This document shows, piece by piece, positions 29,057 to 45,505 of a stretch of 64,000 bases of DNA (position 1 is its first letter; each line of letters opens with the position of its first letter). The position numbers and the translations under genes are program-made. The DNA comes from Candidatus Latescibacterota bacterium. GTDB lineage: Bacteria > Latescibacterota > UBA2968 > GCA-2709665. The DNA lies in contig OZ250150.1 of NCBI GenBank assembly GCA_965237675.1, positions 3,904,001-3,968,000 of the forward strand, read 5' to 3'. The notes beneath the pieces are model-generated. The model saw only the letters and a list, made by a program, of their open reading frames with translations, was not told where the DNA came from and made no database searches.

Positions 29057-29232
29057 CTTCGACCGCAAACTTCTAAACACCCTGATCGCAAGGGTATGCA
29101 TCGAGCGCTGAACCTGTAATCCGGGCCCTGGATGTCAGAGCCTCCGAACCCTTTGTTGAAACCCGGGACCATGCATTCCACGGCCGCAGAACGGATATCG
29201 GGAAACCAGATTCAGGAACACAGACGGAGAAT

Positions 29233-30486
29233 ATGTCGATGCAACAACCCGACGTCAGGCGGCGAATGCGGGTTCGGCATACGGATTGGGGAGATGCTGT
29301 ACGCATTGATCTCAATCAACTGGGTGCACGGTTGCCGTCGCACAGCACGGACGGCGTGACATGGTCGGAAGCAACCAGCGAGGCTTTGCGGGACGAATGG
29401 TCGGAATCCCAGAACGAGGCGCTGTGCGACTCGATGACGGAGGTTGCTGCCGGTATGGGAGGGGGATTCGATTCGTTTGCCGAGTGGACGGTGTTGCACA
29501 ACAAGCTGTACGACGGCACGCACATGCGCGATGTGCGTCGGGCGCGGTTCACCCGGGGGTACCGCGCGGCGATCACGACGCTCGGCTGGGCGCATCCGAA
29601 GACCTTGCTTTCGACATGCATTCAGGCGGTGGGTTACGTGCCAAAAGATCGCGTGGAGTTCGAGCAGACCGCGTGGCGGCCGGAGTCAATGTACGATACC
29701 GAGTTCATGGCGCTTTCGCCGGCCGTGGTGACGAGGTTCGGCGGAGGTCGGCAGATACACCTGTCGGGTGTTGTGGCGTGGGACAAGGAAATCAATCCGC
29801 TATTCGAAGGGCAGCCGGAACGTCAGATTACCCACGTATTCGACCTCATTCAGGGTGTATTCGAGGAAGGCGGCGGAACGCTGTCCGACGTGGTCCGCCT
29901 GCGTCCATTCGCCCACTCAACCGACATTGCGAAGATTATCCGGTGCGAAGTGAACCGGCGCTGGGCCGGCCTCCCAGGGCCCGTCGTGCTGATGTCGGAC
30001 AGCCGGCGCTTTGGCGACCCGCCGAGGCTCTACACGGAAATTCAGGTCATGGGCGTCATGTCGGATGACCGGTTTGAGGTGGGGCACTCCGAAATTGAAC
30101 TTCCTCCGGGGGTACTGGACGACGGCACCACGGGGATTCGCAGCAGTCGTGCCCGCGACTGGGAACTGATTCAGGTGGGCGAACTGCGTGCGGCGCCGGG
30201 TGCGGGCCCCGCCCAGGAGGCGGAGCAGTTGGCCGCGCAAATGGCCGCTGTCCTCGAGCATGCCTCGCTCACACCAGACGACGTCTGCCTGACGTTTGCC
30301 TATATCAGTTCGCTTGAGATTGCCGGTGCGTTTTCGAAAGCTGTACCTCAGGCGGCGCCGTTGGACACGTTGCACGTGTTGCCGTGCCCCGCAATGCCGG
30401 AATTGGAGGGCCGTCATATCAAGGTTGAGATGACGGCAAGGAGACTCCTGAAGCCGGTCTCCCGGACGGGTTCCGGGGCGCTCTGA
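29233..30486 (+). CDS. Multidomain RidA/YjgF-like protein, apparently three tandem Rid-fold units
   Basis: Middle unit IHLSGVVA...QI..VF..I..V.EEGGG.LSDVVRL...YTEIQVMG; third unit L..ASL.PDDV...IKVEMTA; first unit degenerate. Confidence 0.6.
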   Translation: MSMQQPDVRRRMRVRHTDWGDAVRIDLNQLGARLPSHSTDGVTWSEATSEALRDEWSESQNEALCDSMTEVAAGMGGGFDSFAEWTVLHNKLYDGTHMRDVRRARFTRGYRAAITTLGWAHPKTLLSTCIQAVGYVPKDRVEFEQTAWRPESMYDTEFMALSPAVVTRFGGGRQIHLSGVVAWDKEINPLFEGQPERQITHVFDLIQGVFEEGGGTLSDVVRLRPFAHSTDIAKIIRCEVNRRWAGLPGPVVLMSDSRRFGDPPRLYTEIQVMGVMSDDRFEVGHSEIELPPGVLDDGTTGIRSSRARDWELIQVGELRAAPGAGPAQEAEQLAAQMAAVLEHASLTPDDVCLTFAYISSLEIAGAFSKAVPQAAPLDTLHVLPCPAMPELEGRHIKVEMTARRLLKPVSRTGSGAL

Positions 30487-30610: not shown

Positions 30611-31501
30611 ATGCGTATAAGCGCAACGGGTTTAACGAAAATCTATCCGAAGGGGACCGTGCCCGCGCTGGATCGTGTGGACCTGGAGATCGGACGGGGG
30701 ACATTCGGGATCCTGGGTCCGAACGGTGCGGGAAAAACCACGCTCATCAAGATTCTTTCAACCCAAATGGAGCCAACGGCAGGTCAGGCAAGAATCGGTG
30801 CGTGGGACCTGCAGCGCAACCGTTCCGAAGTGCGTCGCAGGCTGGGTTATCTTCCGCAACACTTCGGGGCATATCCGCAACTGACAGCGTGGGAATTTCT
30901 GGACTATATGGACCGGCTGGCGGACGGGCGCCGTCGGGGCGGAAAGAGGGAACGGGTGCGGGATGCACTTGAGAGCGTCGGGCTCTACGGCGCGCGCAAC
31001 CGGCGAACCGGCACGTTCTCCGGCGGAATGATGCGGCGGCTTGGCATTGCGCAGGCCATTGTCGGTAATCCTGAGATCCTGATTGTGGATGAGCCTACCG
31101 TGGGGCTCGACCCGGAAGAACGCATACGCTTTCGGAGGATTCTCGCCCGGTTGAGTCGAGATCGGACAATCTTGATTTCCACCCATATTGTGGGTGATGT
31201 CTCGAGTACGTGCGATGATCTGGCCGTACTGGATGCCGGGCGGGTCGTCTACAGGGGTTCTCCCGCGACGCTAGTAACGCGCGCAAAGGGCAAGACCTGG
31301 CGGGTGCAGGCGGACGACGCCGGTTTCGAAACGCTCTCCAAACGGTTTCTGGTCGTGACGGTTGCCGTGGACGGAGACCTGTTGGATCTCCGGATTGTGG
31401 GCGACGGCGATCCTCCTGCCAATGCGGAACCGGTTCCGCCAAATCTTGAAGATGCGTATGTCTATTTTATGGGTATGGAGAATATGGAAAGGGCGGCGTG
31501 A
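30611..31501 (+). CDS. ABC transporter ATP-binding protein (ABC-2/multidrug type)
   Basis: GPNGAGKTT, GYLPQ, FSGGM, IVDEPTVGLDP, STH, LEDAY. Confidence 0.95.
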   Translation: MRISATGLTKIYPKGTVPALDRVDLEIGRGTFGILGPNGAGKTTLIKILSTQMEPTAGQARIGAWDLQRNRSEVRRRLGYLPQHFGAYPQLTAWEFLDYMDRLADGRRRGGKRERVRDALESVGLYGARNRRTGTFSGGMMRRLGIAQAIVGNPEILIVDEPTVGLDPEERIRFRRILARLSRDRTILISTHIVGDVSSTCDDLAVLDAGRVVYRGSPATLVTRAKGKTWRVQADDAGFETLSKRFLVVTVAVDGDLLDLRIVGDGDPPANAEPVPPNLEDAYVYFMGMENMERAA

Positions 31502-31513
31502 GTCGCATTGAGG

Positions 31514-34500
31514 ATGGATACGGCTTTTACCATATTGTCGGTTGCCTGGTATGAACGCAAAATGCTGATGCGGACGACCAGGTTTCGCATTCTGGGCGGT
31601 ATTGGGGTACTCATCCCCGCTGTTCTCGGCGTTGGCTTGGCAATCGCGGAAGCCAGGGGCGTCGAATTCGAATCTGTCAGCGGAATTGGTGCCTATATGC
31701 CCTTTTTCGTTTACAGTTTTCTGCAGACCGTCGTGATCGCGTTTGTTGTGGGAGATTTCCGCGCTGCGGATGAGCGGGCTGGAATCTATGAGGTGGTTGC
31801 GGCCCGGCCGCTGTCTACGGCCGAACTGGTGATGGGCAAATACCTGGGTGTTCTGGGCGCGCTGTTCACGCTGAGCATGGTTGTGCTGGTGCTCAGCCTC
31901 GGAGTTCATGCGGCTAAAATCAGCATTACGGGTGCTCCGTTTGACATTCGACCCTACCTGGCGTACCTGCTGCTGCTGAACCTGCCGGGGCTCATTTATA
32001 TGTCCGCCCTCACGTTCTTTCTTGGAGCCGTGTTACGTCGGCAGGCTGCAGTGACGGTGCTGACCATCGCGTATGTCCTGATTGTACTCTTGTTTCTCGG
32101 ACGCCGATACGGGGGCATTTACGATTTCGGCGCATTTTTCGCCCCCGTGTTCTATTCGGATATGCTCGGGCTTGGCGACATCCGGCGGGTTGTGGAAATC
32201 CGGTTCTTCTACATGATGGTTGCCATGTTTTTCTTCGGTCTGTCAATCGACAGGTATCCGCGCCTGCCGCAATCCAGGTCCTGGCGCAGGTTTGGCCGGT
32301 GTCTGACCGCGGGCGGTTTCGTCGCCGCGCTGGGGTTGTTCCTTTATATGGAGAATCTGGACGCGACCGACCTCGACTACAGGTCGGCGCACCTGGAATT
32401 TCAGGAAAGATACGCCGAACAGCCAACGGTTGCAGTAACGCATTACACCCTCGATCTGGACCTGGCGACCGACCGGGCGCCGCTGCTTGGCAGGGCGGTC
32501 CTGCAAGTCTTGAACCCTCATCCCATACCCCTGGATACCCTGGTTTTCAGTCTCAACCCGGGATTGCGTTTGCGGTCTGTGGGCACACAGCAGGAAGGGG
32601 GCGTTAATGTCAACTGGCGTCGCGATTTCTCAACCGTGCGGGTCGTGCGCCAACTGCAACCCGATAGTCTGGCTACACTGGTTTTTGTATACGACGGGTG
32701 GATTGATCGCAGCGGATTCGACCTGAGGCGTCATCCGGACACAAGGCGTCTGCAAAAAAGGCGTTCGGGGCCGGGAACAAAAGGTGATCTGACCGCCTGG
32801 ATTCACCACGATTCCGTATTTCTGCCGCCTCGCAGCCGGTGGTATCCCACGCCGGGCGTGGATTACGGCCATCAGGATGGCAGACCCTTTTCCTTCGCAA
32901 CGGCAGACCTCAACATTTCTCTTCCCGCCGGGCTGGAAATTGCAACCCAGGGTGTGCCGGTTAACAGAGAACAACTGCGTAAACGGGAGATCCATACATG
33001 GAAAGTGGAAACCCCGGTACCCGTTCTTTCGCTCAATGCCGGCGTCTATCGTGTTTTTCGGGCTCGAATTCATGATATCGACTGTGCTATTTATGTGCAT
33101 CCGGCCCACGCCAGGCAGGTCACCTTTTTCGAAGACGCAAAAGATGACGCCATTAAAACCCTGGGCGAAATCCTGGATAGCGTTGAGCAGGAGACCAGTC
33201 TGGCTTACCCCTATCAACGGCTTTCGGTAGTGGAGGTGCCATTTCAGATACAATGGTATTACGACGGATGGGAGGAAGCGGGTGGATTGGTACAGCCCGG
33301 CGTGCTGATGCTGGAAGAGGATGTCCTGATGCGGTTGAAGTTACGCCAGCGGCTGAAGTGGATGCAGCGGCGGCAACGGCGAAACGACGACCCGTCGCGA
33401 GTCAAGCGGGATCTGCTGGTCAGCACGGTCCTGAACACGTTTCTCGCGAGGGAATCGGCTCAGAGTGGAATATATCGGAGTCCTGTTGCGCAACTCTGGT
33501 CGTTCAACAAGGGATTCGAAGGCGAACACTATTCCCTGCTCAAGCGCGGAATGCCAGTCTATATGCAGAAGCATCTCGGAACCAATTTACAGCAGACGTT
33601 CTATTCGCGGCGGGGCCGGTTTCGCGGGCGGTTCCGGCGAGAAAGAGGCGTGGGCGGCGTCTCGTGGGATACGATAACCACACGGATGCGGCAGCGTTCC
33701 TTCGCGGAACTGGACCCGAGCGGCGAAGCGGAACTCTACCGCGCGGTCGTCGACGCCAAGGGCGCCTCCATGTTCGGCATGATGCAGGCGGTGGTGGGGG
33801 ACGAGTCATTCCGGGATGTGGTGAGCGGGTTCGATGAGGCGAATCGACACGTCGGGGTTGACTTCGCTTCGTTTGAACAGGCGGCGATCGGGGATTCCTC
33901 ACGCCAGGTGAACAGGCCCATCCTGAATCGCCTGGTCCGCGACTGGCTGCACGGTACGCAGGTGCCGGGATACACACTGACACGGGCAAAAGCATATAAG
34001 GTGGACGATGGGTGGGGTATGCTGACGTATCAGGTCATTGTGCGGATCCGAAACGGTGAACCCGGGCGCGGGTTTGTCCAGATTCGAGCGATGGGCAACG
34101 AGGACGAGGCCGTAAAGGGAGTCGAGATAGAGGGCGGGCAGGAAGTGGAGGTGGGGTTGATCCTATGGGAACGGCCCTTAAGGTTGAGTGTCGAGCCATT
34201 CTTTGCACGCAACCGACGCGTCCTGATGGCGCCGTTGCGAATTCCCGAACAGCCGATGGACGGGTCTGCCACGACCTACGTGAGGGAGGTTGCCCCGGAC
34301 GAGACCGGATTGACGGAGATCATCGTGGACAACGATGATGAAGGATTCGAGATGCCGGTCCGCAGAGTGCGGCGTTATTTGAGGCCGCATTTGAAGGGCG
34401 ACAACTGGCAGGAGCGCCAGATGCCGTTTGCCTTCGGCCGGTATGAGAACAACTTCCGATGGAAGAAACCCGGCGACGGCGCGCAACCCGCCGTTTGGAC

Positions 34501-34885
34501 CGCAAGGTTGCCGCACAGCGGGGATTACGATGTCTACTATTTTTTCGTTCCTTACAGGTTTTCAAGGCGTCTGCGCATGGCATCCGAGTTCAATCTGGCC
34601 GTCTTTCACGGTGAGGCGGTGGATACACTGGCAGTCGAAGCACGCGAACTGAAGGCGGGCTGGAACGTCCTGGGTCGTTATCGGTTCGAGCAGGGGGAAC
34701 TGGCACGCGTCGAATTGTCGGACCGTGCCAATGGGCGCCTGTACGCCGACGCGGTGCGCTGGAGGTACGTCGATCCGGACCATCCCGAGGAGGTATATGA
34801 AGAGGAACTCCCCACTTGGAACTTCGGCCGCCGCCGCAGGGGTGACCGGAGCGGGCGGGAACAAAGGCGCGGAGGACAATGGTAA
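31514..34885 (+). CDS. ABC-2 permease fused to an M1-aminopeptidase-like domain (no HEXXH) and a golvesin-C-like beta-sandwich
   Basis: N-terminal multi-TM with EVVAARPLS..ELVMGKYLG; M1-like HY.LDL, FSLNPGL, WYP, YPY..L.VVEVP; C-terminal IIVDNDDEGF...G.YDVY...GWNVLG.Y.F...YADAVRW. Confidence 0.8.
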   Translation: MDTAFTILSVAWYERKMLMRTTRFRILGGIGVLIPAVLGVGLAIAEARGVEFESVSGIGAYMPFFVYSFLQTVVIAFVVGDFRAADERAGIYEVVAARPLSTAELVMGKYLGVLGALFTLSMVVLVLSLGVHAAKISITGAPFDIRPYLAYLLLLNLPGLIYMSALTFFLGAVLRRQAAVTVLTIAYVLIVLLFLGRRYGGIYDFGAFFAPVFYSDMLGLGDIRRVVEIRFFYMMVAMFFFGLSIDRYPRLPQSRSWRRFGRCLTAGGFVAALGLFLYMENLDATDLDYRSAHLEFQERYAEQPTVAVTHYTLDLDLATDRAPLLGRAVLQVLNPHPIPLDTLVFSLNPGLRLRSVGTQQEGGVNVNWRRDFSTVRVVRQLQPDSLATLVFVYDGWIDRSGFDLRRHPDTRRLQKRRSGPGTKGDLTAWIHHDSVFLPPRSRWYPTPGVDYGHQDGRPFSFATADLNISLPAGLEIATQGVPVNREQLRKREIHTWKVETPVPVLSLNAGVYRVFRARIHDIDCAIYVHPAHARQVTFFEDAKDDAIKTLGEILDSVEQETSLAYPYQRLSVVEVPFQIQWYYDGWEEAGGLVQPGVLMLEEDVLMRLKLRQRLKWMQRRQRRNDDPSRVKRDLLVSTVLNTFLARESAQSGIYRSPVAQLWSFNKGFEGEHYSLLKRGMPVYMQKHLGTNLQQTFYSRRGRFRGRFRRERGVGGVSWDTITTRMRQRSFAELDPSGEAELYRAVVDAKGASMFGMMQAVVGDESFRDVVSGFDEANRHVGVDFASFEQAAIGDSSRQVNRPILNRLVRDWLHGTQVPGYTLTRAKAYKVDDGWGMLTYQVIVRIRNGEPGRGFVQIRAMGNEDEAVKGVEIEGGQEVEVGLILWERPLRLSVEPFFARNRRVLMAPLRIPEQPMDGSATTYVREVAPDETGLTEIIVDNDDEGFEMPVRRVRRYLRPHLKGDNWQERQMPFAFGRYENNFRWKKPGDGAQPAVWTARLPHSGDYDVYYFFVPYRFSRRLRMASEFNLAVFHGEAVDTLAVEARELKAGWNVLGRYRFEQGELARVELSDRANGRLYADAVRWRYVDPDHPEEVYEEELPTWNFGRRRRGDRSGREQRRGGQW

Positions 34886-36006
34886 TTAACTGCGTATCAA
34901 GGGCATATAACTTTTTGGTGAGGTTTGTTTTGAATCGACGATTTTCTGAATTCTGGGTGCTATTCAGCGCTGTTTCCGTGCTGTCCGGTTGCGGCGGGCA
35001 AACCGAGCAGCGGTCCGTGGATCTGACAGTTCCGGTAACGGTTCAGGCTGTGAGGCTGGATACAATGGAGGCGACGGTGGCCGCCACGGGCACGCTCCGC
35101 TCCATAAAAGAGGCTCGAATTCAAACTGAGGTCGAGGGCATTATTCGATTTGTCGGCCGGGACGGTTGGGGAAGGCCAACCGAAGGCTTGCGGGTTTCCC
35201 GAAACCAGGTGATTGCCAGCCTGGTGAACAAGGAGCTTGTTGTGAACGCCCGGCTGGAATCCCGGGAGCTTGCGCGGGCCACTGCGAAGCGAACGCTGCG
35301 CGAACAGGAGGTACTTGTTGAGCGCAAGCTGAGCACACGGAGAGATCTGGAAGAAGCACGCCACGCCCTTGCCGAAGCCGAATCAAACTATGAAGACGCC
35401 ATCGTTCAGATCGCCAAGACAACGATTCGGACACCTATCGCCGGGTTTTTGACGGGCCTGGCCGATATTACCGAAGGTACACTGGTCGACGCCCGTACGA
35501 CCATCGCGACGGTGATGGATTACAGCCAGGTACTCGTCGATCTCAAAATACCGAATGCCTATATTTCTTCGGTGATGCCGGGCCAGGTTGTGCGAGTGGA
35601 GAACTATGCGTTGCCCAACCGACTGTTCTTTGGCACCATCAAGGTGGTGGACCCGGCCATCGATCCGACGACCCGTACGTTCCGGGTGGTGGGGGCCGTG
35701 GAAAACTCGAACCTGATGTTGCGACCGGGCATGTTCGTGACGGCGGAGATTGTGACGGAGTCACACGAAAACGCCGTGGTCATTCCGCGTCGCTATGTCC
35801 TGACCCGTCAGAATCGCAAGGTCGTGTTCGTTGAAGAGGAGGGGAGGGCGCAGATGCGCAACGTGGAACCGGGGTTGGAGGGGCCGGAGTTGGTCGAAAT
35901 CCTGGAAGGTCTTGAACCTGGAGAGCGCCTGATTACCAGCAACTACGAGACCCTGCGGCCCCGAACGCGCGTCCGGGTAACCGGTGCGGGAGTGCCAGGG
36001 CGGTAA
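34879..36006 (+). CDS. RND efflux periplasmic adaptor (membrane fusion protein)
   Basis: Lipobox-like VLSGC; IRTPIAG, IDPTTRTF.V, LRPGMFV, VEILEGLEPGE. Start uncertain. Confidence 0.9.
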   Translation: MVINCVSRAYNFLVRFVLNRRFSEFWVLFSAVSVLSGCGGQTEQRSVDLTVPVTVQAVRLDTMEATVAATGTLRSIKEARIQTEVEGIIRFVGRDGWGRPTEGLRVSRNQVIASLVNKELVVNARLESRELARATAKRTLREQEVLVERKLSTRRDLEEARHALAEAESNYEDAIVQIAKTTIRTPIAGFLTGLADITEGTLVDARTTIATVMDYSQVLVDLKIPNAYISSVMPGQVVRVENYALPNRLFFGTIKVVDPAIDPTTRTFRVVGAVENSNLMLRPGMFVTAEIVTESHENAVVIPRRYVLTRQNRKVVFVEEEGRAQMRNVEPGLEGPELVEILEGLEPGERLITSNYETLRPRTRVRVTGAGVPGR

Positions 36007-36244
36007 TGAACACGAGCGCCGGTCGTCCGCGGTCCGAGGAATGGTACCGGCTTGAAAAATCCCATCTGCGCCGATATATCAACGCAAAACACAGTGTGAG
36101 TTCTGAATTGAAGCCCTCTGGGACGCACGGACCGCGTATGCCCCTTCCGGAGGGTCCTTTTTAGGCCTGCGGGTCGGGAAGCGCATTCGCACGAGCAACC
36201 AGCGATAAGACACCTGGCCACATCCTTTTCAAAGAGTTGAATCG

Positions 36245-39200
36245 ATGTCATTGCCCGAATTTTCGACAAAGTATCCCGTGACGGTTGCGATGGCCACGCT
36301 GGCGGTAGCGCTCCTGGGTTGGATCTCGCTGGCGCGGCTGGACGTGGATCTGTTGCCCGACCTGCGTTCTCCCGTGATAACCGTCGATTTGCGTTTTCCG
36401 GGAAAGACGCCCATGGAGATGGAAGAGCGTTACGCGCGAAGGCTCGAAGGGGATATCGGTACGGTCCGCCACGTCAAACGTGTACATTCCGTGTCTCGCT
36501 CCGGACAAGCCGTGGTGATCGCGGAATTTGAATGGGATGCGGATATGGATTTCGCCCTGCTCGATGTACAAAAGAAAGTGGGGCGGTACGCAGCGGATCC
36601 CGATATCACGAGTCTGGACGTTACACAGGAAGACCCCCATGCGCTGCCGGTGATGCGTCTGGCCGTCTACGGAGCGGATTGGCAGGATCCGGACGAACTG
36701 CTGGGTAGCGTGGAAACGGTGATCAGGCCGAAACTGGAAGGGTTTCCGGGGGTGGCTTCAGTCGAAATCGAAGGGGGGGCCGAGAAAGAGATTCGTGTCA
36801 CGCTGGATTCCTATCTCCTGGAGGCCTTTGGCGTTGGTTCCGAAACGGTCGTCTCGAGGATTCGTGAGGCGAATGCGGATGTCTCCGGGGGAACGTTGAA
36901 GGATGGGCAACGTACCTATCTGGTCAAGGGTCTGGGACGTCTGACCGATTTGCAGGACGTGAACAACCTGGTGGTGGGCGAGCGCAGGGGCGGCGCCACC
37001 AACGGCCAGGAAGACGCCCCCACCCAGCGCGTACCCGTCACCGTGGCCGATGTGGGCACTGTGGCGTTACGTTACATGGAGCGGGAAACCATTGTGCGCC
37101 TCGATGGTATGGAGTGCGTGGGCCTTTCCGTATACAAGGAAGCGGGCGCGAATACGTCGGCGGTGGTCAACGGGGTTCTTCGAGAATTGGAAGGCCTGGA
37201 GGCAGATCTGGCGGGCGTCCGGTTTACCGTGGTGGAGAATCAGGCACGCTTTGTCGAGCGAGCGGTAAACGAAGTGGAAGAAGCGGCCGTGCTCGGCGCG
37301 TTGCTGGCCCTTGGCGTGCTGCTGGCTGCGCTCCGGCAGTGGACGGCCACACTGGTCATCGGCCTGGCCATTCCAATTTCCGTACTGGCCACCTTCACGC
37401 TGATGTACTTCCAGGGTTTGACGTTGAATGTGATGACCCTGGGCGGGTTGGCGCTAGGCGCTGGCATGCTGGTTGACAATGCCATTGTGGTGATTGAAAA
37501 CATCTACCGGCATATCGAACGGGGAGAAACAGCCGCCGAAGCCTCCATCCGAGGTGCGGGCGAGGTCGGTGTGGCCATTCTGGCTTCCACACTTACCACG
37601 GTGTCCGTGTTTCTGCCCATCGTCTATCTTCACGGGTTGGCCGGCGAACTCTTCAAGGAGCAGGCGTGGACGGTCGCGTTTTCGCTGATTTCGTCTCTGG
37701 TGGTGGCCATGACGCTGGTCCCGATGTTGACCGCCCGTCTCTTCAGGCGGTTTCCTCGCCGAGCCCCCAGAGCCGCTGGATCAGCCATATTCGGACGATT
37801 TCTGGCAGCATCACTCAACCGTAAGGGCCGCACGATGGCAGTGCTTGTCGCCTTTCTTCTGGCCGCTGTGTACATGGCCCGGTCCATCCATACGTCTTTT
37901 ATTCCCAGGGAAGACGAGGGTGTACTTCACGTGGCCCTCGCGCTGCCGGAGGGCACAAGGCTCGAGTCCACGGACAGGGTGGCGAGACGCGTTGCCGCAA
38001 TCACACAGGCGGTCGCCGGAGAGGAAGCCCTGCACATCTACCTCCGCGCGGGAACCGATTCGAACCGGCTGACGGCCGTGGGCGAACCCTCCGGCCCAAA
38101 CAGGGCCGAGTTGACGGTGGTGCTGGCGCAGCGAACGGACCGCCGTAGTGTCTCCGAACTGACCACCGCGCTGGATACGGCCATTCGGGAAGTGCCGAAT
38201 ATCAAGGTCAACTATCGACTTCAAAAGGCTGCATTAGAAGGACTTATCCGAGGAGATGCCGCTCCGGTTCAAGTCGAGGTGAGCGGCGAGAACCTGGCGT
38301 TACTTCGGGAATTGACGGCAGATCTGAAACGGCGCATGGCGGGGTTGCGCACGGTATATAACGTGCGAACGAGCTTTCAGGATGGTCAGCCCGAAGTGGA
38401 CGTGGTGTTGCGGCCGGACGTCACAGCGGCGTTTGGCCTGACCGCGGAGAATCTGGTGCGCGAACTCGGGCGGAGGCTGGGAGGCGAGATAGTCGGGGAA
38501 CTCTCCAAGGACCAGCGGGCGCGAACCATCCGGGTGGGTTTCGAAGATTTGGATCTTCGTGCGTTGAAACACGCGAGAATTGACGGCCCCGACGGTGCAA
38601 TGCTCACTCTGGGAGATCTCGCCGACCTGCGGGTGGTCCATGGGCCACGGGAGATATTGCGCGACGGGCAGCGTCGGGTGGGCAGGGTATCGGCTTACCT
38701 GACCGAAGGGGTGGTATTGAGCCAGGCGGCGACGCAGATCAGACAGGCGGTGGAACAGATGGCCATTCCGCACGGGTACCGGTTGACGGTTACTGGCGAG
38801 GAACGGGAACGGGCCGAGTCGTTTGCCGGTCTGCAATTCGCCCTGTTACTGTCGGTTGTGCTCGTCTATATGGTAATGGCTTCGCTTTTCGAGTCTTTAC
38901 TCCATCCGTTTACCGTGATGCTGACGGTGCCGCTGGCAGGCATCGGGGTCGTGTTCGCATTTTGGAGTCTTGGAGAGGCGTTTGGCGTGATGGCGTTCAT
39001 CGGAGCGATTATGCTGGGAGGTATCGCCGTGAACGACGCCATTATTCTGGTGGACCGGATCAACCAGCTCCGGCGCGATACGGGCGACTTGAGGACGGCC
39101 GTTCTCCAGGGGGCACAGGATCGGCTGCGTCCGATCCTGATGACCAGCGCCACAACCATTCTGGCGCTGTTGCCCATGGCGGTGGGGGTTGGGGAGGGAG

Positions 39201-39328
39201 CCCGGCTCAGGGCGCCGATGGCGGTGGCGGTTATCGGCGGGTTGGTGACGTCCACGCTGATGACGCTTGTGGTGATTCCGGTCGTTTACGAATTGATCGA
39301 ACGGGTCAGAATCAGGAGGGCGCCGTGA
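36245..39328 (+). CDS. RND permease (AcrB/AcrD/AcrF family)
   Basis: L.VDLLPD...P, GMLVDNAIVVIENI, ASTLTT..VFLP, MASLFES..HP, RLRPILMT, GGL.TST. Confidence 0.95.
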   Translation: MSLPEFSTKYPVTVAMATLAVALLGWISLARLDVDLLPDLRSPVITVDLRFPGKTPMEMEERYARRLEGDIGTVRHVKRVHSVSRSGQAVVIAEFEWDADMDFALLDVQKKVGRYAADPDITSLDVTQEDPHALPVMRLAVYGADWQDPDELLGSVETVIRPKLEGFPGVASVEIEGGAEKEIRVTLDSYLLEAFGVGSETVVSRIREANADVSGGTLKDGQRTYLVKGLGRLTDLQDVNNLVVGERRGGATNGQEDAPTQRVPVTVADVGTVALRYMERETIVRLDGMECVGLSVYKEAGANTSAVVNGVLRELEGLEADLAGVRFTVVENQARFVERAVNEVEEAAVLGALLALGVLLAALRQWTATLVIGLAIPISVLATFTLMYFQGLTLNVMTLGGLALGAGMLVDNAIVVIENIYRHIERGETAAEASIRGAGEVGVAILASTLTTVSVFLPIVYLHGLAGELFKEQAWTVAFSLISSLVVAMTLVPMLTARLFRRFPRRAPRAAGSAIFGRFLAASLNRKGRTMAVLVAFLLAAVYMARSIHTSFIPREDEGVLHVALALPEGTRLESTDRVARRVAAITQAVAGEEALHIYLRAGTDSNRLTAVGEPSGPNRAELTVVLAQRTDRRSVSELTTALDTAIREVPNIKVNYRLQKAALEGLIRGDAAPVQVEVSGENLALLRELTADLKRRMAGLRTVYNVRTSFQDGQPEVDVVLRPDVTAAFGLTAENLVRELGRRLGGEIVGELSKDQRARTIRVGFEDLDLRALKHARIDGPDGAMLTLGDLADLRVVHGPREILRDGQRRVGRVSAYLTEGVVLSQAATQIRQAVEQMAIPHGYRLTVTGEERERAESFAGLQFALLLSVVLVYMVMASLFESLLHPFTVMLTVPLAGIGVVFAFWSLGEAFGVMAFIGAIMLGGIAVNDAIILVDRINQLRRDTGDLRTAVLQGAQDRLRPILMTSATTILALLPMAVGVGEGARLRAPMAVAVIGGLVTSTLMTLVVIPVVYELIERVRIRRAP

Positions 39329-42300
39329 TTCTCCCCGATCTTGCCGTCCGGAGGCCGGTAACGACGTCCATGTTTTTCTCCGCATTGGCCATATTGGGTG
39401 TCGTGTCTTGGACCCGGCTTCCGGTACAGCTCTTTCCGGAGCTGATTTTTCCGGAAGTCTTCGTCACGCTCACGCTGCCCGGAGCGACTCCGGAACAGGT
39501 TGAAAGGGATCTGGTGATTCCGGCCGAAGGGGAGATTGGCAAGCTTGACGGGGTCCAGGAGATGGAGTCGTTTGCGATGGCAAATATGGGTGGCGTAAGG
39601 ATATCCTATGCCCCGGACGTGGATATGAAATTCGCCCTGCTTCAGCTCCAGAGCAACCTGAACAGATTACAGCCGACACTGCCCGAACGATCGCAAACTG
39701 ATGTACGGAGGTTTGATTCGACAGATCTGAGCAGCATCATCATGGAGCTTCACGTACTTGCCGATTGGGATCTGAACCAGCTCCGGGAGTTCACCGAGGA
39801 AAAGATCCGTCCTGAACTGGAGTCTATAGACGGTGTCGTGAATGTGTCCGTTATGGGTGGGCGGCGCAGTGCCGTGGAAATTGTCCTGGATCCGTTCCTG
39901 CTCGAGGCGCATGGACTTTCGACCGGACAGGTACGGGAACGCCTGAACAACTACAACCGGCGACGGGAATACCTGGGTCGCGTATATGACGGGAACAGGG
40001 CCTATTCGGTGAGCATTCAGGGACAGTTTACGGATCTGCGCCAGATCCGTAATCTGGTGTTGAACACGGACGGCACCCTCAGACTGGGCGACGTATCCCG
40101 GGTGGGATACGGACTGCAGGAACAGGCCGATCGTCACAGAGTCAACGGCAAACCTTCGGTGGGGGTCCGAATCCAGAAAGACGACGAAGCGAATCTGATC
40201 GAGGTGGCCGCGGCCGTCGAAGCGGCCATTGGCCGGCTGAATCGGGATTTCAAAGGCGAGGGCGTGGAATTGGGCGTGAGTTCGTCTCAGGCGGATCTGA
40301 TGTCCGGGGCGCTATCCACTCTGAAACAGGCGGCCATTGTAGGCGCTGTCCTCGGACTGATCGTGCTTTTTCTGTTTCTTCGAAACTTTCGTTTTGTCTC
40401 GGTCCTCCTGCTGGCCATTCCGGTTTCTCTTCTGATGACCTTTAATCTGATGTACCTGGGCGGGCTATCCGTAAACGTCCTGTCCCTTTGCGGCCTTGCC
40501 CTCGCGATGGGAATGCTTGCCGACAACGGCATTGTCGTGATGGAGAATATCTTCAAGCATTACGAGCGTGGAAAATCCCCTGTCCATGCAGCGCGTGACG
40601 GGGCGGCTGAGGTCGGGCGCGCGGTGGTCGCGGCAACCGCAACCACGGTAACCGCTTTTTTGCCTGTTTTGTTTATCGAGAGCGACGCGCGGGACCTGCT
40701 CCGTGAACTGGCGTTGTCCATGGCGTTTCCTCTTATGGCCTCCCTGCTGGTGGCGCTGACACTCGTACCGGCCCTGGCGGTGCGGGCACTGAGCCGCGAG
40801 GTCCGGCGACCACCCGATGTCCGTGGCTTGCTGGAACGGTATACGCTGTTGTTGAAAGCCGCCCTGCGGCACCGCGCGTTGGTGGCCCTGTCCGTAGGAG
40901 GTGCCCTTACACTGACACTCGTCGTGGCCTTCTATTACCTGCTTCAGCAGCAGGTACGGAGAGAGGAAACGCGATTTACGGTCTATGTGAACCTGCCGGA
41001 AGGGGCCACGCTGGATGCTACCGATGAAGTCGCGAAACAGGTGGAAGAATCTGTGCGTGACGTTCCCGGGCTGGATCGATTCACAACGTCGGTTCGGGAG
41101 GCGGAATCCAGCGTTACTGTCTTGCTGGAAGATCGGTCTGACCGGCCCGGCGACATCTCACTGGATGAAATCAAAGAACAACTCGACGAAAAACTGCAGA
41201 ACGTACAGGGCGGCGTGGTAGGGTACGAGCCCAGGCCACGGGCGGGGAGGGGCGGTCGTGGGCAGGGAATAGGACAGCGTCGGAGACGCAGTTCGGGTGG
41301 ATTCGATCTGACCGGGGCCACCCCGAACGAGCAGGCCGTGGTTCGAGGATACGACTTCACTTTACTGACAATGATTGCCAACGACGTGGTGTACCGCCTC
41401 GAGGAACTGGAGGAGGTCGACGCCAACAGCGTCCGCGCGGACGCCGAACGGAGTTCGCCCGAGGTTCAGGTGATACCCGATGCGGCGGCTCTGTTCGACA
41501 GGCAGCTTGGGACACGGGAGGTGTTGGCCGCAATGGGTGATACCCGTTGGGACGGTTTCCGTACCACCGTACCGTTTCTCCTGCCCGACGCAACCGAGAT
41601 ACCCATTGAAGTGCGTACAATTGAAGAGGAGGACCGGGACCGGTACGGGCTGGCTGAATTCAAGCGCTCCCGCATTCTCAACCAGGTCGGGCAGTACGTG
41701 TCTCTGGACGAAGTCGCGCGTGTTCGAACGGATGAAGGCAGGAGCAACCTGTTGAGGACCGACCAGGCCCGTCGGATCGTGGTTTCGTACCGGTTTCCTT
41801 CGGAAATTCTCGATTCACAACCGCGGTTGGAGACCGCGAGACGTGTCGTACGGACGACTCTTCAGGATATGGTGCTGCCGGAGGGCTATTCGATCGAAAT
41901 AACAGAGGCACAGGAGGAGACGATTTACTATTGGATGATGGGAGTTGCCGCGGTGCTCATCTACATGATTCTGGCCTCGCTGTTTGAATCTTTCGCGTCT
42001 CCGGTCATCATTCTGTGTACGCTACCACCCGCGGCCATTGGTTCCTGTTGGGCGCTGATGATGTCGGGTACGGGTCTGAGCCAGCAGGAGGGGCCCATGG
42101 CGCTGCTGGGCTTTGTTGTCCTGCTGGGCATTGCCGTGAATAACGGGATTATCCTGATCGATGCAGTCGGCGTGCTCAGGTCCCGATTCGGTTATCGCCG
42201 GGAACGCGCGGTATTGGCGGCGGCACGGTCCCGGGTACGACCGATATTGATGACGACGGCCACAACGCTTCTGGGCGTCCTACCGCTCGCTCTGGTATTC

Positions 42301-44037
42301 GGAGGCGACTTTGAAATCTGGCCGCCGTTTGCAATCACCGTTCTGGGCGGGTTGTCGGTTTCCATGGTGTCCACACTGATCCTGATTCCGGTCGTTTACA
42401 TGGGGCTGGACCAGATCGGAGCCTGGCTGGCCGATATGGGGTTTATCGGCGTCACTCTCTCACTGCTGGCTACAGCGGCGGCCGGCTATGGCGTATATAC
42501 CCGGTATGACAGCGTCTTCTGGGCGGCCCTGTCGATATTGCCTATCTGGGTTGTGTTCTTGTCAGCGGTGTGGATCGTACTGAAGGTCCATCGCGCTCGA
42601 GTGTCCGCCCGTCGCGTGGCGGACGCCGTGTATTCCATTCAGTTGCGGAATCTGACGAAGACCTACGGCGCGCCCGGGCGATTTGCACGCGAGTGGGCGC
42701 GAAGCGAACGTCGGAGAGGGCGGTTGATGGAAACGGGGTTGGATCCGCAGGACCGCAAGGCGGTCCGGGATACTCTTTTCTGGAAGCTGCCGTTACTCGC
42801 CCTGTTGCTGTTTTTTGCGGCCTATTTCGAGGATGAAATCTGGATCTATCTGCACGGGGTGGCGCTGGCCTTTATGCTGGCCCATGTGGGTCAATGTTTC
42901 GGCGCCCTCTGGCGCGGGCAAACGTCGGCACCGGTCACTCGCATCGGCGACTTTCTTCGTAAAGTGGTTCTGCCACTGGGATTTCTGGCCTATGTGCACT
43001 GGCGGCTGAACCTGCTTTCCGTCACGATTGCATCGTTCGGGTTGTGGGTTGTCTATCGTCTGGCGCGGCGGCTCGCGAACAGGGTGCGGACGGGCAAGGT
43101 AAACCCCGACGAAATGTCCGGACGGGTTGGATGGGCACGCCGATGGGTCTATCGGATGGCATCGGCCTTACCTCTTATAGGGGTTCCCCGGCCGGCATTT
43201 CGGGCGCTGGCGGGCGTCAACCTGGAGATTGGCAGGGGGATGTTCGGTCTCTTGGGCCCGAATGGCGCCGGTAAGACCACGTTGATGCGTATTCTCTGCC
43301 GGGTTCTCGAGCCCAGCTGCGGGTCAATTCTGATCGATGGTCGAAACATCCTGAGAAGGGGTTCGATTCATGGGCTGATCGGGTATCTTCCGCAGCACTT
43401 CGGTAACTATGGACATCTTTCCGCATACGAATTCCTGGAATACCGGGCGCTGCTGGAAGGCTTTAAGGACCGAAAAACCCGGGAGACGCGGGTGATCGAG
43501 TCTCTGGAACAGGTCAATCTGATCGAGCGGAAGGAAGATCCGATCGGATCCTTCTCCGGTGGCATGAAGCAGCGCCTGGGCATCGCGCAGACCCTGTTGC
43601 ACACTCCGCTGATCGTGGTCGTGGACGAGCCCACTGCGGGGCTCGACCCGCTGGAGCGCATCCGGTTTCGCAACCTGCTCGCCCGTTTGAGCCAGGATCG
43701 GATCGTCATTTTTTCCACGCACATCGTGGAAGACATCTCAGGAAGCTGCAATCGACTGGCGGTACTGGATCAGGGGCGCCTACTGTATACCGGAACGCCA
43801 CAGGAGATGAGAAACCTGGCAGAGGGACGGGTGTGGGATGCGGTTGTGCCGGACCGGCGCTTTTCCGAACTCGAAGAAAAACTGAAGCTCGTAACGCATC
43901 AGCGAACGTCAGCCGGGGTCCGAATGCGATTCTTGTCCGATCGCCCACCGGTTGGCGTCGGCGCGCAGAGCGCGGATCCAACGCTTGAAGACGCTTATCT
44001 TTACCTTCTTGGCAGGGGAAAGGAACAGCCGTGCTGA
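39325..44037 (+). CDS. RND permease fused to extra TM segments and a C-terminal ABC ATPase domain (1570 aa)
   Basis: GTG 39325 follows AGGAGG and overlaps the upstream stop (GTGA). RND motifs GMLADNGIVVMENI, LASLFES, RVRPILMT; then GPNGAGKTT, GYLPQ, FSGGMKQR, VVDEPTAGLDP, STH in one uninterrupted frame. Confidence 0.9.
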   Translation: MILPDLAVRRPVTTSMFFSALAILGVVSWTRLPVQLFPELIFPEVFVTLTLPGATPEQVERDLVIPAEGEIGKLDGVQEMESFAMANMGGVRISYAPDVDMKFALLQLQSNLNRLQPTLPERSQTDVRRFDSTDLSSIIMELHVLADWDLNQLREFTEEKIRPELESIDGVVNVSVMGGRRSAVEIVLDPFLLEAHGLSTGQVRERLNNYNRRREYLGRVYDGNRAYSVSIQGQFTDLRQIRNLVLNTDGTLRLGDVSRVGYGLQEQADRHRVNGKPSVGVRIQKDDEANLIEVAAAVEAAIGRLNRDFKGEGVELGVSSSQADLMSGALSTLKQAAIVGAVLGLIVLFLFLRNFRFVSVLLLAIPVSLLMTFNLMYLGGLSVNVLSLCGLALAMGMLADNGIVVMENIFKHYERGKSPVHAARDGAAEVGRAVVAATATTVTAFLPVLFIESDARDLLRELALSMAFPLMASLLVALTLVPALAVRALSREVRRPPDVRGLLERYTLLLKAALRHRALVALSVGGALTLTLVVAFYYLLQQQVRREETRFTVYVNLPEGATLDATDEVAKQVEESVRDVPGLDRFTTSVREAESSVTVLLEDRSDRPGDISLDEIKEQLDEKLQNVQGGVVGYEPRPRAGRGGRGQGIGQRRRRSSGGFDLTGATPNEQAVVRGYDFTLLTMIANDVVYRLEELEEVDANSVRADAERSSPEVQVIPDAAALFDRQLGTREVLAAMGDTRWDGFRTTVPFLLPDATEIPIEVRTIEEEDRDRYGLAEFKRSRILNQVGQYVSLDEVARVRTDEGRSNLLRTDQARRIVVSYRFPSEILDSQPRLETARRVVRTTLQDMVLPEGYSIEITEAQEETIYYWMMGVAAVLIYMILASLFESFASPVIILCTLPPAAIGSCWALMMSGTGLSQQEGPMALLGFVVLLGIAVNNGIILIDAVGVLRSRFGYRRERAVLAAARSRVRPILMTTATTLLGVLPLALVFGGDFEIWPPFAITVLGGLSVSMVSTLILIPVVYMGLDQIGAWLADMGFIGVTLSLLATAAAGYGVYTRYDSVFWAALSILPIWVVFLSAVWIVLKVHRARVSARRVADAVYSIQLRNLTKTYGAPGRFAREWARSERRRGRLMETGLDPQDRKAVRDTLFWKLPLLALLLFFAAYFEDEIWIYLHGVALAFMLAHVGQCFGALWRGQTSAPVTRIGDFLRKVVLPLGFLAYVHWRLNLLSVTIASFGLWVVYRLARRLANRVRTGKVNPDEMSGRVGWARRWVYRMASALPLIGVPRPAFRALAGVNLEIGRGMFGLLGPNGAGKTTLMRILCRVLEPSCGSILIDGRNILRRGSIHGLIGYLPQHFGNYGHLSAYEFLEYRALLEGFKDRKTRETRVIESLEQVNLIERKEDPIGSFSGGMKQRLGIAQTLLHTPLIVVVDEPTAGLDPLERIRFRNLLARLSQDRIVIFSTHIVEDISGSCNRLAVLDQGRLLYTGTPQEMRNLAEGRVWDAVVPDRRFSELEEKLKLVTHQRTSAGVRMRFLSDRPPVGVGAQSADPTLEDAYLYLLGRGKEQPC

Positions 44038-44753
44038 ACTGGCATGAATTGCTGCTGACCTGGTGGCGGCTCTATCGGCTTAGCTGCAGAATCATATTTC
44101 ACAGGAAATTGATGTTCATGGCTATTGGTGTTCTCGTTTATTACGCTGCCATGTATGCATTTGCGGTCTGGCGGCCCAGCGAAGGATTCGGCGTATCGCG
44201 GGCGCTCAATGTTCTGGTTGAAATTCCCGGCATCGCCCTGGCCATTTATCTGACGATGGATCTGGTTGCGGGCGAACGAGATAGAAATACACTGGAAACG
44301 CTGTTCAGTACCACGTCGTCCCACTATAAGATCTGGGCGATTCGTATGCTCGGAGTCTATTTCGTGTTGGCGGCCACCCTGATGGGTATGACGGTGGTTG
44401 CCTATTTTGTTTTCGCGGAGTTGCCTATCTTTTGGGGCGGGCTGAATGCTTTTCTGCCTGCGTGCCTTGCCGCGGGGCTCACTTTTTATTTTTCTGTTCT
44501 CTGTCGAAGCGGCAATGCGGCCGCGATGCTCGCTACGGGAGTGATGGGCCTGACTGTGTTCATCTCGGAATCCATGCCAGATTCACCCTTCGCGCTTTTT
44601 CTGAGTACGTTTGATCCCCCGGTGGGAATGGAAGGCACCCTTTGGGGCGACCAGATGCTGCTGAATCGCCTGGGTGTAATATTGCTGTCGGGTTTGCTGC
44701 TTTTTATGGGCCTCCGGAAGATGGAAGCCAGGGAGCGATTGGTTTCTTCCTGA
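44031..44753 (+). CDS. ABC-2-type permease-like membrane protein
   Basis: About six hydrophobic segments; ABC-2 loop GERDRNTLETLFST; overlaps the upstream stop. Confidence 0.8.
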   Translation: MLNWHELLLTWWRLYRLSCRIIFHRKLMFMAIGVLVYYAAMYAFAVWRPSEGFGVSRALNVLVEIPGIALAIYLTMDLVAGERDRNTLETLFSTTSSHYKIWAIRMLGVYFVLAATLMGMTVVAYFVFAELPIFWGGLNAFLPACLAAGLTFYFSVLCRSGNAAAMLATGVMGLTVFISESMPDSPFALFLSTFDPPVGMEGTLWGDQMLLNRLGVILLSGLLLFMGLRKMEARERLVSS

Positions 44754-44920: not shown

Positions 44921-45505
44921 TCACTCAGATTCCCATTCGTTTGGAATCGAACAACTGTTTTGGGCGGCCCAGCGACGTGCCTGCTCGTAAAAGTCCTTAA
45001 ACGAACCTGATCCAGCAATCCAAGATCTCAATGATGTTGTTGAAACGTAGTTGCAGACTCGTGCTTTTCCCAGTTCTTTGTCACGTCCAGTCAACCCGAA
45101 TCTCCGCTTTACAAAATCAGAAGGGTTGTCCCTCGGTATCTCTTCCTCCTTACATTCCAGTTCGCGGGCAAGCGAGCCCCGGTCAATTGCCAGCCACCAT
45201 TCTATATTTTGGTCAGCCACGCCAAATACGGTCAGATGACGGAGATTTTCGGGAATCCGAGCGCCCTCGCGATTTTTGACCTCACGCCAGGGATTGTTAT
45301 CGGCATCCGTCAACACAACCAGTATGTTACATCCTTCATGGCTATTTAAGACCTGGAGATTCTTGGCAATCTCTCGCCTGTGAGATTCCTTCGACCCACC
45401 TCGATATCGCCCCGGTGCCAACTCCGCAGCAGGACACCAGCGTTCTTTCAGCCCCCGGACGACTGCTTCATCCATATCCCCCTGGACATAAAATCCAATC
45501 TTCAT
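44921..45505 (-). CDS. TOPRIM-like (DUF4276/RloB-type) protein coupled to the upstream ATPase
   Basis: N-terminal strand IGFYVQGDMDE, central VVLTDAD, later NIEWWL; ATGA overlap with the ATPase. Confidence 0.6.
   Translation of the reverse strand: MKIGFYVQGDMDEAVVRGLKERWCPAAELAPGRYRGGSKESHRREIAKNLQVLNSHEGCNILVVLTDADNNPWREVKNREGARIPENLRHLTVFGVADQNIEWWLAIDRGSLARELECKEEEIPRDNPSDFVKRRFGLTGRDKELGKARVCNYVSTTSLRSWIAGSGSFKDFYEQARRWAAQNSCSIPNEWESE

Follow-up and report, generated by a model that had tools for sequence, protein, structure and literature searches.

A conserved gene cluster with an RND permease fused to an ABC ATPase, a candidate composite envelope exporter of Latescibacterota and other bacteria

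Contig OZ250150.1 of Candidatus Latescibacterota bacterium (GenBank assembly GCA_965237675.1) was analysed over a stretch of 64,000 nucleotides, from position 3,904,001 to 3,968,000 of the forward strand, which is referred to here as the window and is numbered from its first letter. The window harbors a cluster of six genes, g1 to g6, in which the components of a resistance-nodulation-division (RND) pump are combined with those of an ATP-binding cassette (ABC) transporter of the ABC-2 type. An earlier note made from the sequence alone had read this cluster as a six-gene hybrid export system. All six open reading frames (ORFs) are present and co-oriented on the plus strand between positions 30611 and 44753, and the identities proposed for the ABC ATPase, the membrane fusion protein (MFP), the RND permease and the RND-ATPase fusion were upheld by domain matches from Pfam and NCBIfam (Table 1). 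The proposal of two ABC-2 permeases held in part: g2 lies just over a Pfam cut-off, and g6 is recognized by weak evidence. As had been described, the genes mostly abut or overlap, with a gap of 6 nt between g1 and g2 and overlaps of 7 nt (g2/g3), 4 nt (g4/g5) and 7 nt (g5/g6). The exception is the junction of g3 and g4, where 238 nt (36007-36244) form the sole sizeable gap of the cluster. This gap contains a weak terminator-like hairpin at 36142-36154, and in the two nearest named relatives (L001 and L002) g3 and g4 overlap. Scans for promoters and terminators gave counts that were not above those in shuffled sequence.

Table 1. Features of the g1 to g6 cluster and of its composite genes, in window positions (NBD, nucleotide-binding domain; TM, transmembrane; AF2, AlphaFold2).
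Feature	Position	Strand	Evidence
g1, free ABC ATPase (NBD), DrrA/GldA/NosF-like, 296 aa	30611-31501	+	ABC_tran 108 bits (cut-off 25)
g2, whole gene, 1125 aa	31508-34885	+	ABC2_membrane_3 31.8 bits (cut-off 31.6); Golvesin_C 56.4 bits (cut-off 31.6)
g2, N-terminal ABC-2 type membrane domain and one extra predicted helix	31508-32341	+	ABC2_membrane_3; hydropathy, K+R counts
g2, M1-like periplasmic domain (predicted, approximate boundaries)	32405-33997	+	Profile matches to PDB sequences
g2, C-terminal Golvesin_C / xanthan-lyase-type domain, residues 966-1084	34403-34759	+	PF25275, 56.4 bits
g3, RND-type periplasmic adaptor (MFP)	34879-36006	+	TIGR01730 (RND_mfp) 181.3 bits (cut-off 94.9; profile positions 1-321 of 322); HlyD_D23
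g4, RND permease, 1027 aa	36245-39328	+	ACR_tran 746 bits (cut-off 28), full length (profile positions 3-1020 of 1021)
g5, RND-NBD fusion, 1570 aa	39325-44037	+	ACR_tran residues 5-1027; ABC_tran residues 1297-1438
g5, RND part, residues 1-1030	39325-42414	+	ACR_tran 610 bits (cut-off 28; profile positions 3-1020 of 1021)
g5, extra TM hairpin (predicted), residues 1044-1085	42454-42579	+	Alignment, AF2 model, hydropathy
g5, NBD strand 1, residues 1104-1114	42634-42666	+	Alignment; model strand; alignment with solved NBDs
g5, helical insertion within the NBD, residues 1115-1291	42667-43197	+	Alignment, AF2 model, structure alignment, hydropathy
g5, rest of NBD and C-terminal domain, residues 1292-1570	43198-44037	+	ABC_tran 94.8 bits (cut-off 25); structure matches
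g6, small permease with six predicted TM helices, distantly ABC-2-like, 240 aa	44031-44753	+	Weak Pfam matches; hhalign to g2

The central element of the cluster is g5, in which an RND permease continues in frame into an ABC ATPase, and this fusion is real. When residues 1000-1570 of g5 were used as query, each of the 120 best database clusters carried both ACR_tran and ABC_tran; 110 of these were at least 1455 aa long, with identities of 40-85%, and those that were named belong to Gemmatimonadota, Latescibacterota, Acidobacteriota, KSB1 and Krumholzibacteria. Relatives of the cluster were collected in a one-genome-per-species scan, which gave 80 loci out of at least 590 confirmed stretches, and the junction between the RND part and the NBD is spanned in a single alignment in 59 of these 80. 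It is scarcely conceivable that the 1570-aa frame consists of two genes joined by an error of sequencing or assembly. Nothing was found that speaks for such an error, and it is refuted by the recurrence of the same stop-free fused frame in the 59 loci, which come from independent assemblies, and in 84 genomes; moreover, the linker between the two parts is conserved and has invariant residues.

The region between the RND part and the ATPase has an unusual build. In an alignment of 32 orthologues, two conserved hydrophobic helices directly follow the twelfth TM helix of the RND part. The next conserved element is a strand with invariant K1112 and Y1114 that corresponds to the first strand of g1, and then come about 175 residues with four hydrophobic helices before the remaining ATPase is reached. 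A helical insertion in this way lies between strand 1 of the g5 NBD (residues 1104-1114) and strand 2 (residue 1292 onward), whereas the NBD fold of g1 is contiguous. The same order of elements was obtained in an AlphaFold2 model of residues 1000-1570 (pLDDT 80.8, pTM 0.62), with helices at 2-61 and 65-98 and a strand at 105-115 in the numbering of the model. Solved NBDs align to this model from residues 102-105, that is from strand 1, across the insertion up to the C-terminus: TM_1403 (4yer) with a Z-score of 26.9 and a root mean square deviation of 3.5 over 261 of 277 residues, 1vpl with 26.2 and 1.7 over 231 of 238 residues, and NosF (7qba) with a Z-score of 22.5. Foldseek likewise returned 4yer (5.9e-19) and NosF (1.8e-16, at 29-32% identity), and listed ABCA proteins too.

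Hydropathy averaged over the family gives six segments in this region, at residues 1044-1060, 1069-1085, 1151-1167, 1172-1188, 1208-1224 and 1231-1247. Their connecting loops are short and carry no charge, and two cytoplasmic stretches hold about 12 Lys or Arg residues each, in agreement with the positive-inside rule. Hydropathy and charge pattern therefore predict three hairpins with both pieces of the NBD on the cytoplasmic side. The fused ATPase is accordingly predicted to be tethered to the membrane by six extra TM helices, four of them situated inside the ATPase fold. The site of the insertion presumably matches that of the regulatory insertion in NBD1 of CFTR.

The linker family comprises 159 representative clusters among 1.84 billion proteins, and its full-length members have about 1550-1590 aa. 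An exhaustive profile search detected no stand-alone form of the tether with its NBD; the short matches look like pieces cut by contig ends, and in the range of 297-947 aa the one match among 8000 scored candidates was a fragment that still carried ACR_tran. An origin of the tether as a degenerate ABC-2 domain was considered and rejected (hhalign probabilities of 0.5% for the linker against g6 and 0.4% against g2), and a protein atlas search with the linker gave no usable match.

The two ATPases are close paralogues, as the earlier note had concluded from three shared motifs, all of which are exact. They show 46% identity over 277 residues and are reciprocal best paralogues; among the 49 NBD-like matches of the genome the pair scores 240 bits and the runner-up 159 bits. 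Walker A, Q-loop, signature, Walker B with the catalytic Glu, and H-loop are canonical in both, and these motifs are invariant in alignments of 14 and 32 orthologues. A tree of 70 NBD sequences (FastTree, midpoint-rooted) was built from the window, from 24 of the 59 fusion loci with clean ORFs for g1 and g5, from stand-alone NBDs of non-fusion loci and from one deviating locus, L068. The 25 g5-type NBDs form a single clade (support 0.991), to which the fused NBD of L068 is sister, and the g1-type clade holds 27 sequences (support 0.979), two contig-cut loci among them.

The two RND proteins gave a corresponding picture. In a tree of 63 RND sequences from the window, 26 loci, L068 and seven other RND genes, the g5-RND clade (27 sequences, support 0.996) and the g4 clade (27 sequences, support 1.0) are separate, and the sister of each is the corresponding gene of L068. 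The RND parts of g4 and g5 share 33% identity, and in the tree g5 is more distant from g4 than is a stand-alone paralogue in this genome. Each system has one g1-type and one g5-type NBD as well as one member of the g4 and one of the g5-RND lineage. From both trees it follows that the fusion arose once and that four lineages were kept with one member each. This single copy of each of the anciently separate clades fits a heterodimeric ABC transporter and a heteromeric RND pump, as far as phylogeny can indicate assembly.

Locus L068 (2723-18034) contains the same seven parts in a reshuffled order, namely MFP, NBD, a small permease of 283 aa, RND, a g2-like protein of 919 aa, an RND-NBD fusion of 1438 aa and an outer-membrane efflux protein (OEP). 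The linker of its fusion is short and free of a membrane insertion, and strand 1 is unseparated from the remaining NBD; the fusion may have looked like this at an earlier stage.

The pump to which the ATPase is joined has the features of an RND system of known type. Besides its nearly complete match to RND_mfp, the adaptor g3 has a lipoprotein-like signal ending in Cys. Both RND proteins match ACR_tran over almost the whole profile; against the more specific NCBIfam models they remain below the cut-offs, with 622 bits for g4 and 526 bits for g5 against RND_permease_2 (cut-off 1250). The best matches at equivalog level were MdtC (399 and 367 bits for g4 and g5, cut-off 1774) and MdtB (381 and 336 bits, cut-off 1584), and MdtB (9lyq) is also the top PDB sequence match for the TM segments of g5. 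The equivalents of AcrB D407 in TM4 and R971 in TM11 are kept in g4 and g5. Compared with the pairs D-D in TM4 and K-N in TM10 of AcrB, g5 has D-N and N-N, so that D408 and K940 are both replaced by N, and g4 has D-N and N-D. A loss of the proton relay, which would have made g5 an ATP-only RND protein, was considered and dropped: the D-N / N-N pattern recurs in four further RND genes of this genome and is therefore the local norm and not a loss. By these residues, the RND parts look competent, like those of ordinary complete pumps.

The evidence for the membrane parts of the ABC module differs between the two permeases. The score of g2 exceeds the threshold of ABC2_membrane_3 by a small margin (Table 1), and g6 has sub-threshold Pfam matches to ABC2_membrane_2 (19.8 bits, cut-off 27.2) and to another ABC-2 model (17.3 bits, cut-off 31.6). 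An hhalign comparison of g6 with the membrane domain of g2 gave a weak match (E 2.3e-4, probability 44%, 167 columns). From family-averaged hydropathy and counts of Lys and Arg, g2 is predicted to have seven TM helices, with the N-terminus inside and the C-terminus outside, and g6 to have six at positions parallel to those of g2. Because of the seven helices, the C-terminal part of g2, about 840 residues, is expected to be periplasmic. Profile searches against PDB sequences detected no solved relative of either permease; the g6 profile found nothing better than an E-value of 0.95, and NosY was absent from the matches of g2 and g6. With a hidden Markov model of g6, a single ORF was identified in every one of 54 loci and likewise a single one in the genome of the window.

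The periplasmic part of g2 had been described as M1-like and golvesin-like. The first description stands at the level of profiles, although the protein of the window has no Pfam match to Peptidase_M1 at E<=0.01. The family profile of g2 matches 6a8z with residues 303-393 (5.7e-7) and tricorn interacting factor F3 with residues 730-813 (3e-6), followed by ERAP1 (1e-4) and PepN (1.5e-3), and the resemblance is confined to two parts, which correspond to the beta domain at the N-terminus and to the helical portion of the catalytic domain. A Pfam match to Peptidase_M1 was seen below threshold in the g2 orthologue of Marivirga. Among 29 g2 orthologues there is no invariant His that could belong to an M1 zinc site, and the position of the catalytic Tyr is unconserved in the alignment of the g2 family profile with F3. 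To judge from these alignments, the M1-like domain is dead, having no zinc site. The second description was borne out by Golvesin_C (Table 1) and by the similarity of the end domain to the C-terminal domain of xanthan lyase 6f2p (1.5e-11). According to excerpts of PMC9166713, domains of the Golvesin_C type belong to a group like carbohydrate-binding modules (CBM) 6, 35 and 36 that includes Bacteroides lectins. The end domain of g2 is, by this relationship, probably CBM-like and glycan-binding. Protein atlas neighbors of g2 at a score of 0.88 are fusions of ABC-2 and M1 domains, which we regard as a lead only. In addition, five genomes of one family of the same phylum (G011, G014, G018, G019 and G023; family f10) have 4-10 matches each to the g2 ectodomain, several of them off the contig of the fusion, which points to extra g2-like paralogues, with a permease joined to a dead M1 domain, outside the cassette.

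No TolC-like or other OEP gene lies in the window, as had been noted before. Ten OEP-domain matches were found in the genome, corresponding to five genes, all of which are located elsewhere. Four of them adjoin other RND/MFP operons. The fifth (G000:C1:5095512-5101634; L096:513-6635) stands in one strand-run with an MMPL-family RND protein of 818 aa, MlaC and a fusion of NTP-transferase and CDP-alcohol phosphatidyltransferase, and this run looks like a lipid-export cluster. In the relatives, an extra gene lies between g2 and g3 in 46 of the 48 loci that keep the gene order, and in Marivirga it was identified as an efflux protein of the outer membrane (PF02321, 2e-40). Only L001 and L002 are without it, as is the window; both are from Latescibacterota and have 60% identity in g5. 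The position of the outer-channel gene varies within the phylum. In three of five genomes checked it is inside the cluster (G166, G011 and G105), in G146 it follows g6 directly (C1:1712281-1725816), and in G089 the cluster has none. Since most relatives hold the OEP gene in the cluster, its absence in the window is a feature of the lineage.

The co-occurrence of ABC and RND genes in other genomes, the lack of which the earlier note had named as refuting its reading, proved to be strong. Of the junction-spanning loci, 49 have 9 kb or more of flank upstream. In 48 of these the order g1-g2-(OEP)-g3-g4-g5-g6 is kept, and in the 49th (L003) the order is unchanged, with g5 aligning in two pieces. 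The first gene was seen in 47 of the 48 loci, the remainder being cut by the flank limit. Downstream, 47 loci extend far enough to hold g6; it comes after g5 in 46 of them, and in the 47th, which is cut by the end of the locus, a partial g6 is visible. Median intergenic gaps are 10-26 nt across loci. The junction-spanning loci are mostly from Bacteroidota and otherwise from Latescibacterota, with one each from Calditrichaceae, Gemmatimonadaceae and Krumholzibacteria, and the gene order extends over all these groups. Cultured carriers include Marivirga sericea, M. tractuosa, Draconibacterium mangrovi, Maribellus maritimus, Parabacteroides massiliensis and Bacteroides sp. 224. Beyond the cluster the surroundings change: no conserved gene was found downstream, where the best ORF cluster is common to only 4 loci, and upstream lie unrelated genes in seven genomes (Por_Secre_tail, rubrerythrin, LTXXQ, FdhD, RidA-like).

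Of the 168 genomes of the phylum, 84 have the g5 linker (residues 1030-1300), and the open frames that contain it measure about 1570-1600 aa. Among high-quality genomes the linker was found in 34 of 52; all 14 genomes of the window genus have it. The g2 ectodomain occurs in 82 of the 168. Both features are present in 80 genomes and neither in 82, these genomes being related and not independent; four have the linker only (58-86% complete) and two the ectodomain only (90% and 76% complete). Elsewhere the system is sporadic, with 4 of 401 evenly sampled Bacteroidota genomes, the query genome counted, and 15 of 301 sampled genomes in the family of Bacteroides sp. 224.

These data bear on the possibility that the cluster encodes two pumps which share no more than an address. 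The ABC and the RND system would then act on separate substrates or steps, co-regulated and co-localized, and the fusion would serve as a tether for assembly or localization that involves no mechanistic coupling. This has something to recommend it. The RND parts resemble ordinary complete pumps with the Asp of TM4 and the Arg of TM11 kept, and an NBD with an ABC-2::M1-like permease occurs free of RND genes in loci of Planctomycetota (L080), Anaerolineae and Tenacibaculum. The class 3.A.1.145 of TCDB, as far as excerpts of PMC3924187 describe it, covers such a permease fusion by itself. In the Planctomycetota locus, which is from a metagenome-assembled genome (9764-14445), a 1237-aa protein, encoded after an NBD of the same subfamily, combines an M1-like part with two membrane segments that look ABC-2-like; the arrangement resembles 3.A.1.145, and no RND gene is nearby. 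As far as the domains can tell, this is a stand-alone form of the ABC module. We nevertheless regard two uncoupled pumps as improbable. The seven-gene synteny is rigid across phyla, with ABC genes flanking the RND genes on both sides; linker and ectodomain co-occur almost perfectly; there is just one adaptor gene for all of the cluster; the fusion has a single origin and was retained, together with a six-helix tether of which no stand-alone form was seen; and L068 retains all parts in spite of its reshuffling.

The distribution also weighs on the suggestion that the cluster encodes a machine for building the envelope, which would carry a component such as a lipoprotein, a glycolipid or a glycopeptide related to peptidoglycan as far as the outer membrane or the surface, the peptidase-like and sugar-binding domains recognizing the cargo. 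The ectodomain does pair a fold of peptide-binding type (M1) with a domain of CBM type, no regulator or biosynthetic gene travels along, as would fit a housekeeping role, and the system is single-copy and present in every genome of the window genus. The occurrence is patchy in turn, in half of the phylum genomes and in few of the sampled Bacteroidota, and for this reason the system is not essential envelope machinery in general. A dedicated envelope-building role has, in our estimation, a slim chance.

The reading that we favor, with modest confidence, is that the six genes form one operon for a single composite exporter of the envelope, driven by both ATP and protons. Its core would be a tripartite RND pump of the lipoprotein adaptor g3 and the RND proteins g4 and g5, the latter two probably assembled as a mixed trimer as in MdtBC. 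The outer channel would be supplied by the OEP encoded between g2 and g3 in most relatives, and here by one of the five distant OEP genes. To this core an ABC-2 module, consisting of the C-terminal ATPase of g5 together with g1, g2 and g6, would be hard-wired. The tether, with two helices after TM12 of the RND part and four between strands 1 and 2 of the ATPase, would anchor the NBD of g5 at the membrane, and the ectodomain of g2 would serve as a device for holding or handing over the substrate. In a first step, hydrolysis of ATP would move or extract a substrate from the cytoplasm or the inner membrane to the periplasmic face; the ectodomain would then pass it to the porter domain of the RND pump, which, driven by protons, would expel it through the outer channel. 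We give an even chance to this specific arrangement, in which an ABC-2 heterodimer is tied by the six-helix tether, partly threaded through the ATPase fold, to a protomer of a mixed RND trimer and cargo is relayed via the ectodomain into the RND pump and out through TolC.

How much of this is given by the data can be stated part by part. The gene content, the fusion with its conservation and its co-occurring partners, the intact motifs of the ATPases, the predicted topology, the splitting of the NBD in the model and the lost peptidase site come from the data themselves. The earlier note had the ABC transporter physically docked on the RND-MFP complex. Because the NBD of g5 is covalently joined to an RND subunit, at least one part of the ABC module is physically attached to it, and for the rest the notion of docking draws on gene order. 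The NBD heterodimer, the mixed RND trimer, the contact between permeases and RND proteins and the direction of transport are what we infer.

Several points weigh against the composite exporter. Beyond the covalent link, its physical integration is deduced from gene order. An RND trimer is three-fold and an ABC dimer two-fold, and owing to this mismatch of symmetry any stoichiometry is guesswork; two copies of g5 per trimer could lead to a homodimeric (g5C-g6)2 transporter and a separate (g1-g2)2 transporter. The ABC-2 nature of g6 is below every Pfam cut-off, and its profile match to g2 is weak (the 44% given above). The cluster of the window has no OEP gene, and those of the genome sit beside RND operons or in the lipid-transport cluster. 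No substrate gene, regulator or biosynthetic neighbor is conserved in the flanks. Finally, mechanical work in the periplasm, and not transport, may be the task of an ABC-2 module that bears so large an ectodomain, and NosF of NosDFY is among the nearest solved relatives of the NBD.

The last point leads to an alternative in which the RND pump does all of the transport. The ABC-2 module would use ATP to move the ectodomain of g2 and thereby load or gate the RND pump, like NosDFY, MacB, LolCDE or FtsEX, and the substrate captured would be periplasmic or from the outer leaflet. RND pumps such as AcrB take their substrates from precisely the periplasm or the outer leaflet, the domain of about 840 residues is carried on a seventh TM helix of g2, and the likeness of the g5 NBD to NosF has been given above; all of this suits such a mechanotransducer. 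The results, however, fit transport and mechanotransmission alike, the ordinary six-TM layout of ABC-2 permeases also serves true exporters, and the profile searches offered no solved relative of either permease. We hold this alternative to be unlikely but deserving of serious attention.

Comparison with the closest known systems helps to define what is particular to the composite exporter. MdtABC-TolC and MuxABC-OpmB likewise have two adjacent paralogous RND genes, one adaptor and an outer channel encoded in the cluster or elsewhere, and the trimer of MdtBC has the stoichiometry MdtB2C. In contrast to these systems, one RND subunit here continues into six TM helices and an ABC ATPase, the operon adds an ATPase gene and two ABC-2 permease genes, and the residue pairs are D-N in TM4 and N-N or N-D in TM10 instead of D-D and K-N. 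MacAB-TolC shares the ATP-driven part in the inner membrane, an MFP, a TolC-type channel and a permease with a sizeable periplasmic domain. MacB, however, is a four-TM permease of the FtsX type with its own N-terminal NBD, whereas here the permeases are six- and seven-TM and ABC-2-like, one of the NBDs forms part of an RND protein and there is an RND trimer as well; a Pfam scan of g1 to g6 found neither MacB_PCD nor FtsX domains. NosDFY, an ABC-2 permease system for the maturation of nitrous-oxide reductase, acts with a large periplasmic protein, and NosF is close to the NBD of g5, including the C-terminal domain. It differs in having no RND protein, adaptor or outer channel, and NosD is a separate beta-helix protein and not an M1-like fusion.

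Two further systems were compared by description. YbhGFSR of E. coli has two unlike ABC-2 permeases, two NBDs and an adaptor of the HlyD family in one operon, according to excerpts of PMC7190983 and PMC13739795. It resembles the present cluster in this set of permeases, NBDs and adaptor, and differs in that the NBDs are fused to each other in YbhF and that an RND protein, an ectodomain and a tether are lacking. The class 3.A.1.145 of TCDB, an ABC-2 permease fused to a Peptidase M1 domain, is listed as functionally uncharacterized and is represented by Q1D520 of Myxococcus xanthus in excerpts of PMC3924187. As in g2, the ABC-2 membrane domain of Q1D520 is followed by an M1-type domain; by description, it has 13 TM helices and a zinc peptidase, compared with seven TM helices, no zinc site, a Golvesin_C domain and an RND operon in the case of g2. 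None of these closest systems, set apart here partly by description, joins RND and ABC.

Directly after g6, on the minus strand at 44921-46758, lies a two-gene island of low GC content (0.49, compared with about 0.59 around it), which encodes a 418-aa ATPase of the AAA_15/AAA_21 type and a 194-aa partner. These match the candidate defense system HEC-01 of PADLOC (HEC-01A 1.4e-37, HEC-01B 6e-7), and models of AriA and AbiLi match too; going by these models and its composition, the island is probably an acquired anti-phage module. Upstream of the cluster, a run of metabolic genes extends over 18713-30486 on the plus strand. It encodes two proteins with homocysteine S-methyltransferase domains, one of them fused to an S-adenosylmethionine (SAM) methyltransferase, two short-chain dehydrogenases, a 779-aa protein like the beta subunit of N,N-dimethylformamidase, a thiamine pyrophosphate (TPP) enzyme, a flavin adenine dinucleotide (FAD) oxidoreductase and a 417-aa RidA-domain protein; a RidA-like gene is likewise found upstream of g1 in a genome of the same genus. 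Farther downstream, a diadenylate cyclase of the CdaA type (DAC domain) is encoded on the minus strand at 47078-48331, followed on the plus strand, up to 52850, by a tetratricopeptide repeat (TPR) protein and a 1180-aa beta-propeller protein of the FG-GAP/PQQ type.

The earlier note had called the cluster a candidate undescribed machine, and full-text searches of the openly accessible literature found no published description; a word search of the first 300,000 characters of the Chem Rev 2021 review PMC8277102 gave no RND-ABC fusion either. The layout is conserved in many bacteria and has apparently never been studied.

Tripartite pumps of the RND and the ABC type are taught as separate systems that are energized in alternative ways. 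To our knowledge, wherever inner-membrane transporters have been argued to cooperate with RND pumps, the proteins concerned were separate, and a conserved fusion makes this cooperation directly testable. Since cultured, non-exotic Bacteroidota carry the system, genetics and cryo-electron microscopy are feasible. The carriers include gut-associated lineages, in which efflux affects the tolerance to drugs and bile. For structural biology, the fusion offers a dedicated membrane tether and an ATPase fold that would tolerate a membrane insertion of four helices, and it raises the questions of how a two-fold ABC dimer is placed on a three-fold RND trimer and which role a zinc-less M1 fold plays in the periplasm. 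If the composite exporter is true, it would be the first hard-wired relay between a primary, ATP-driven and a secondary, proton-driven class of pumps.

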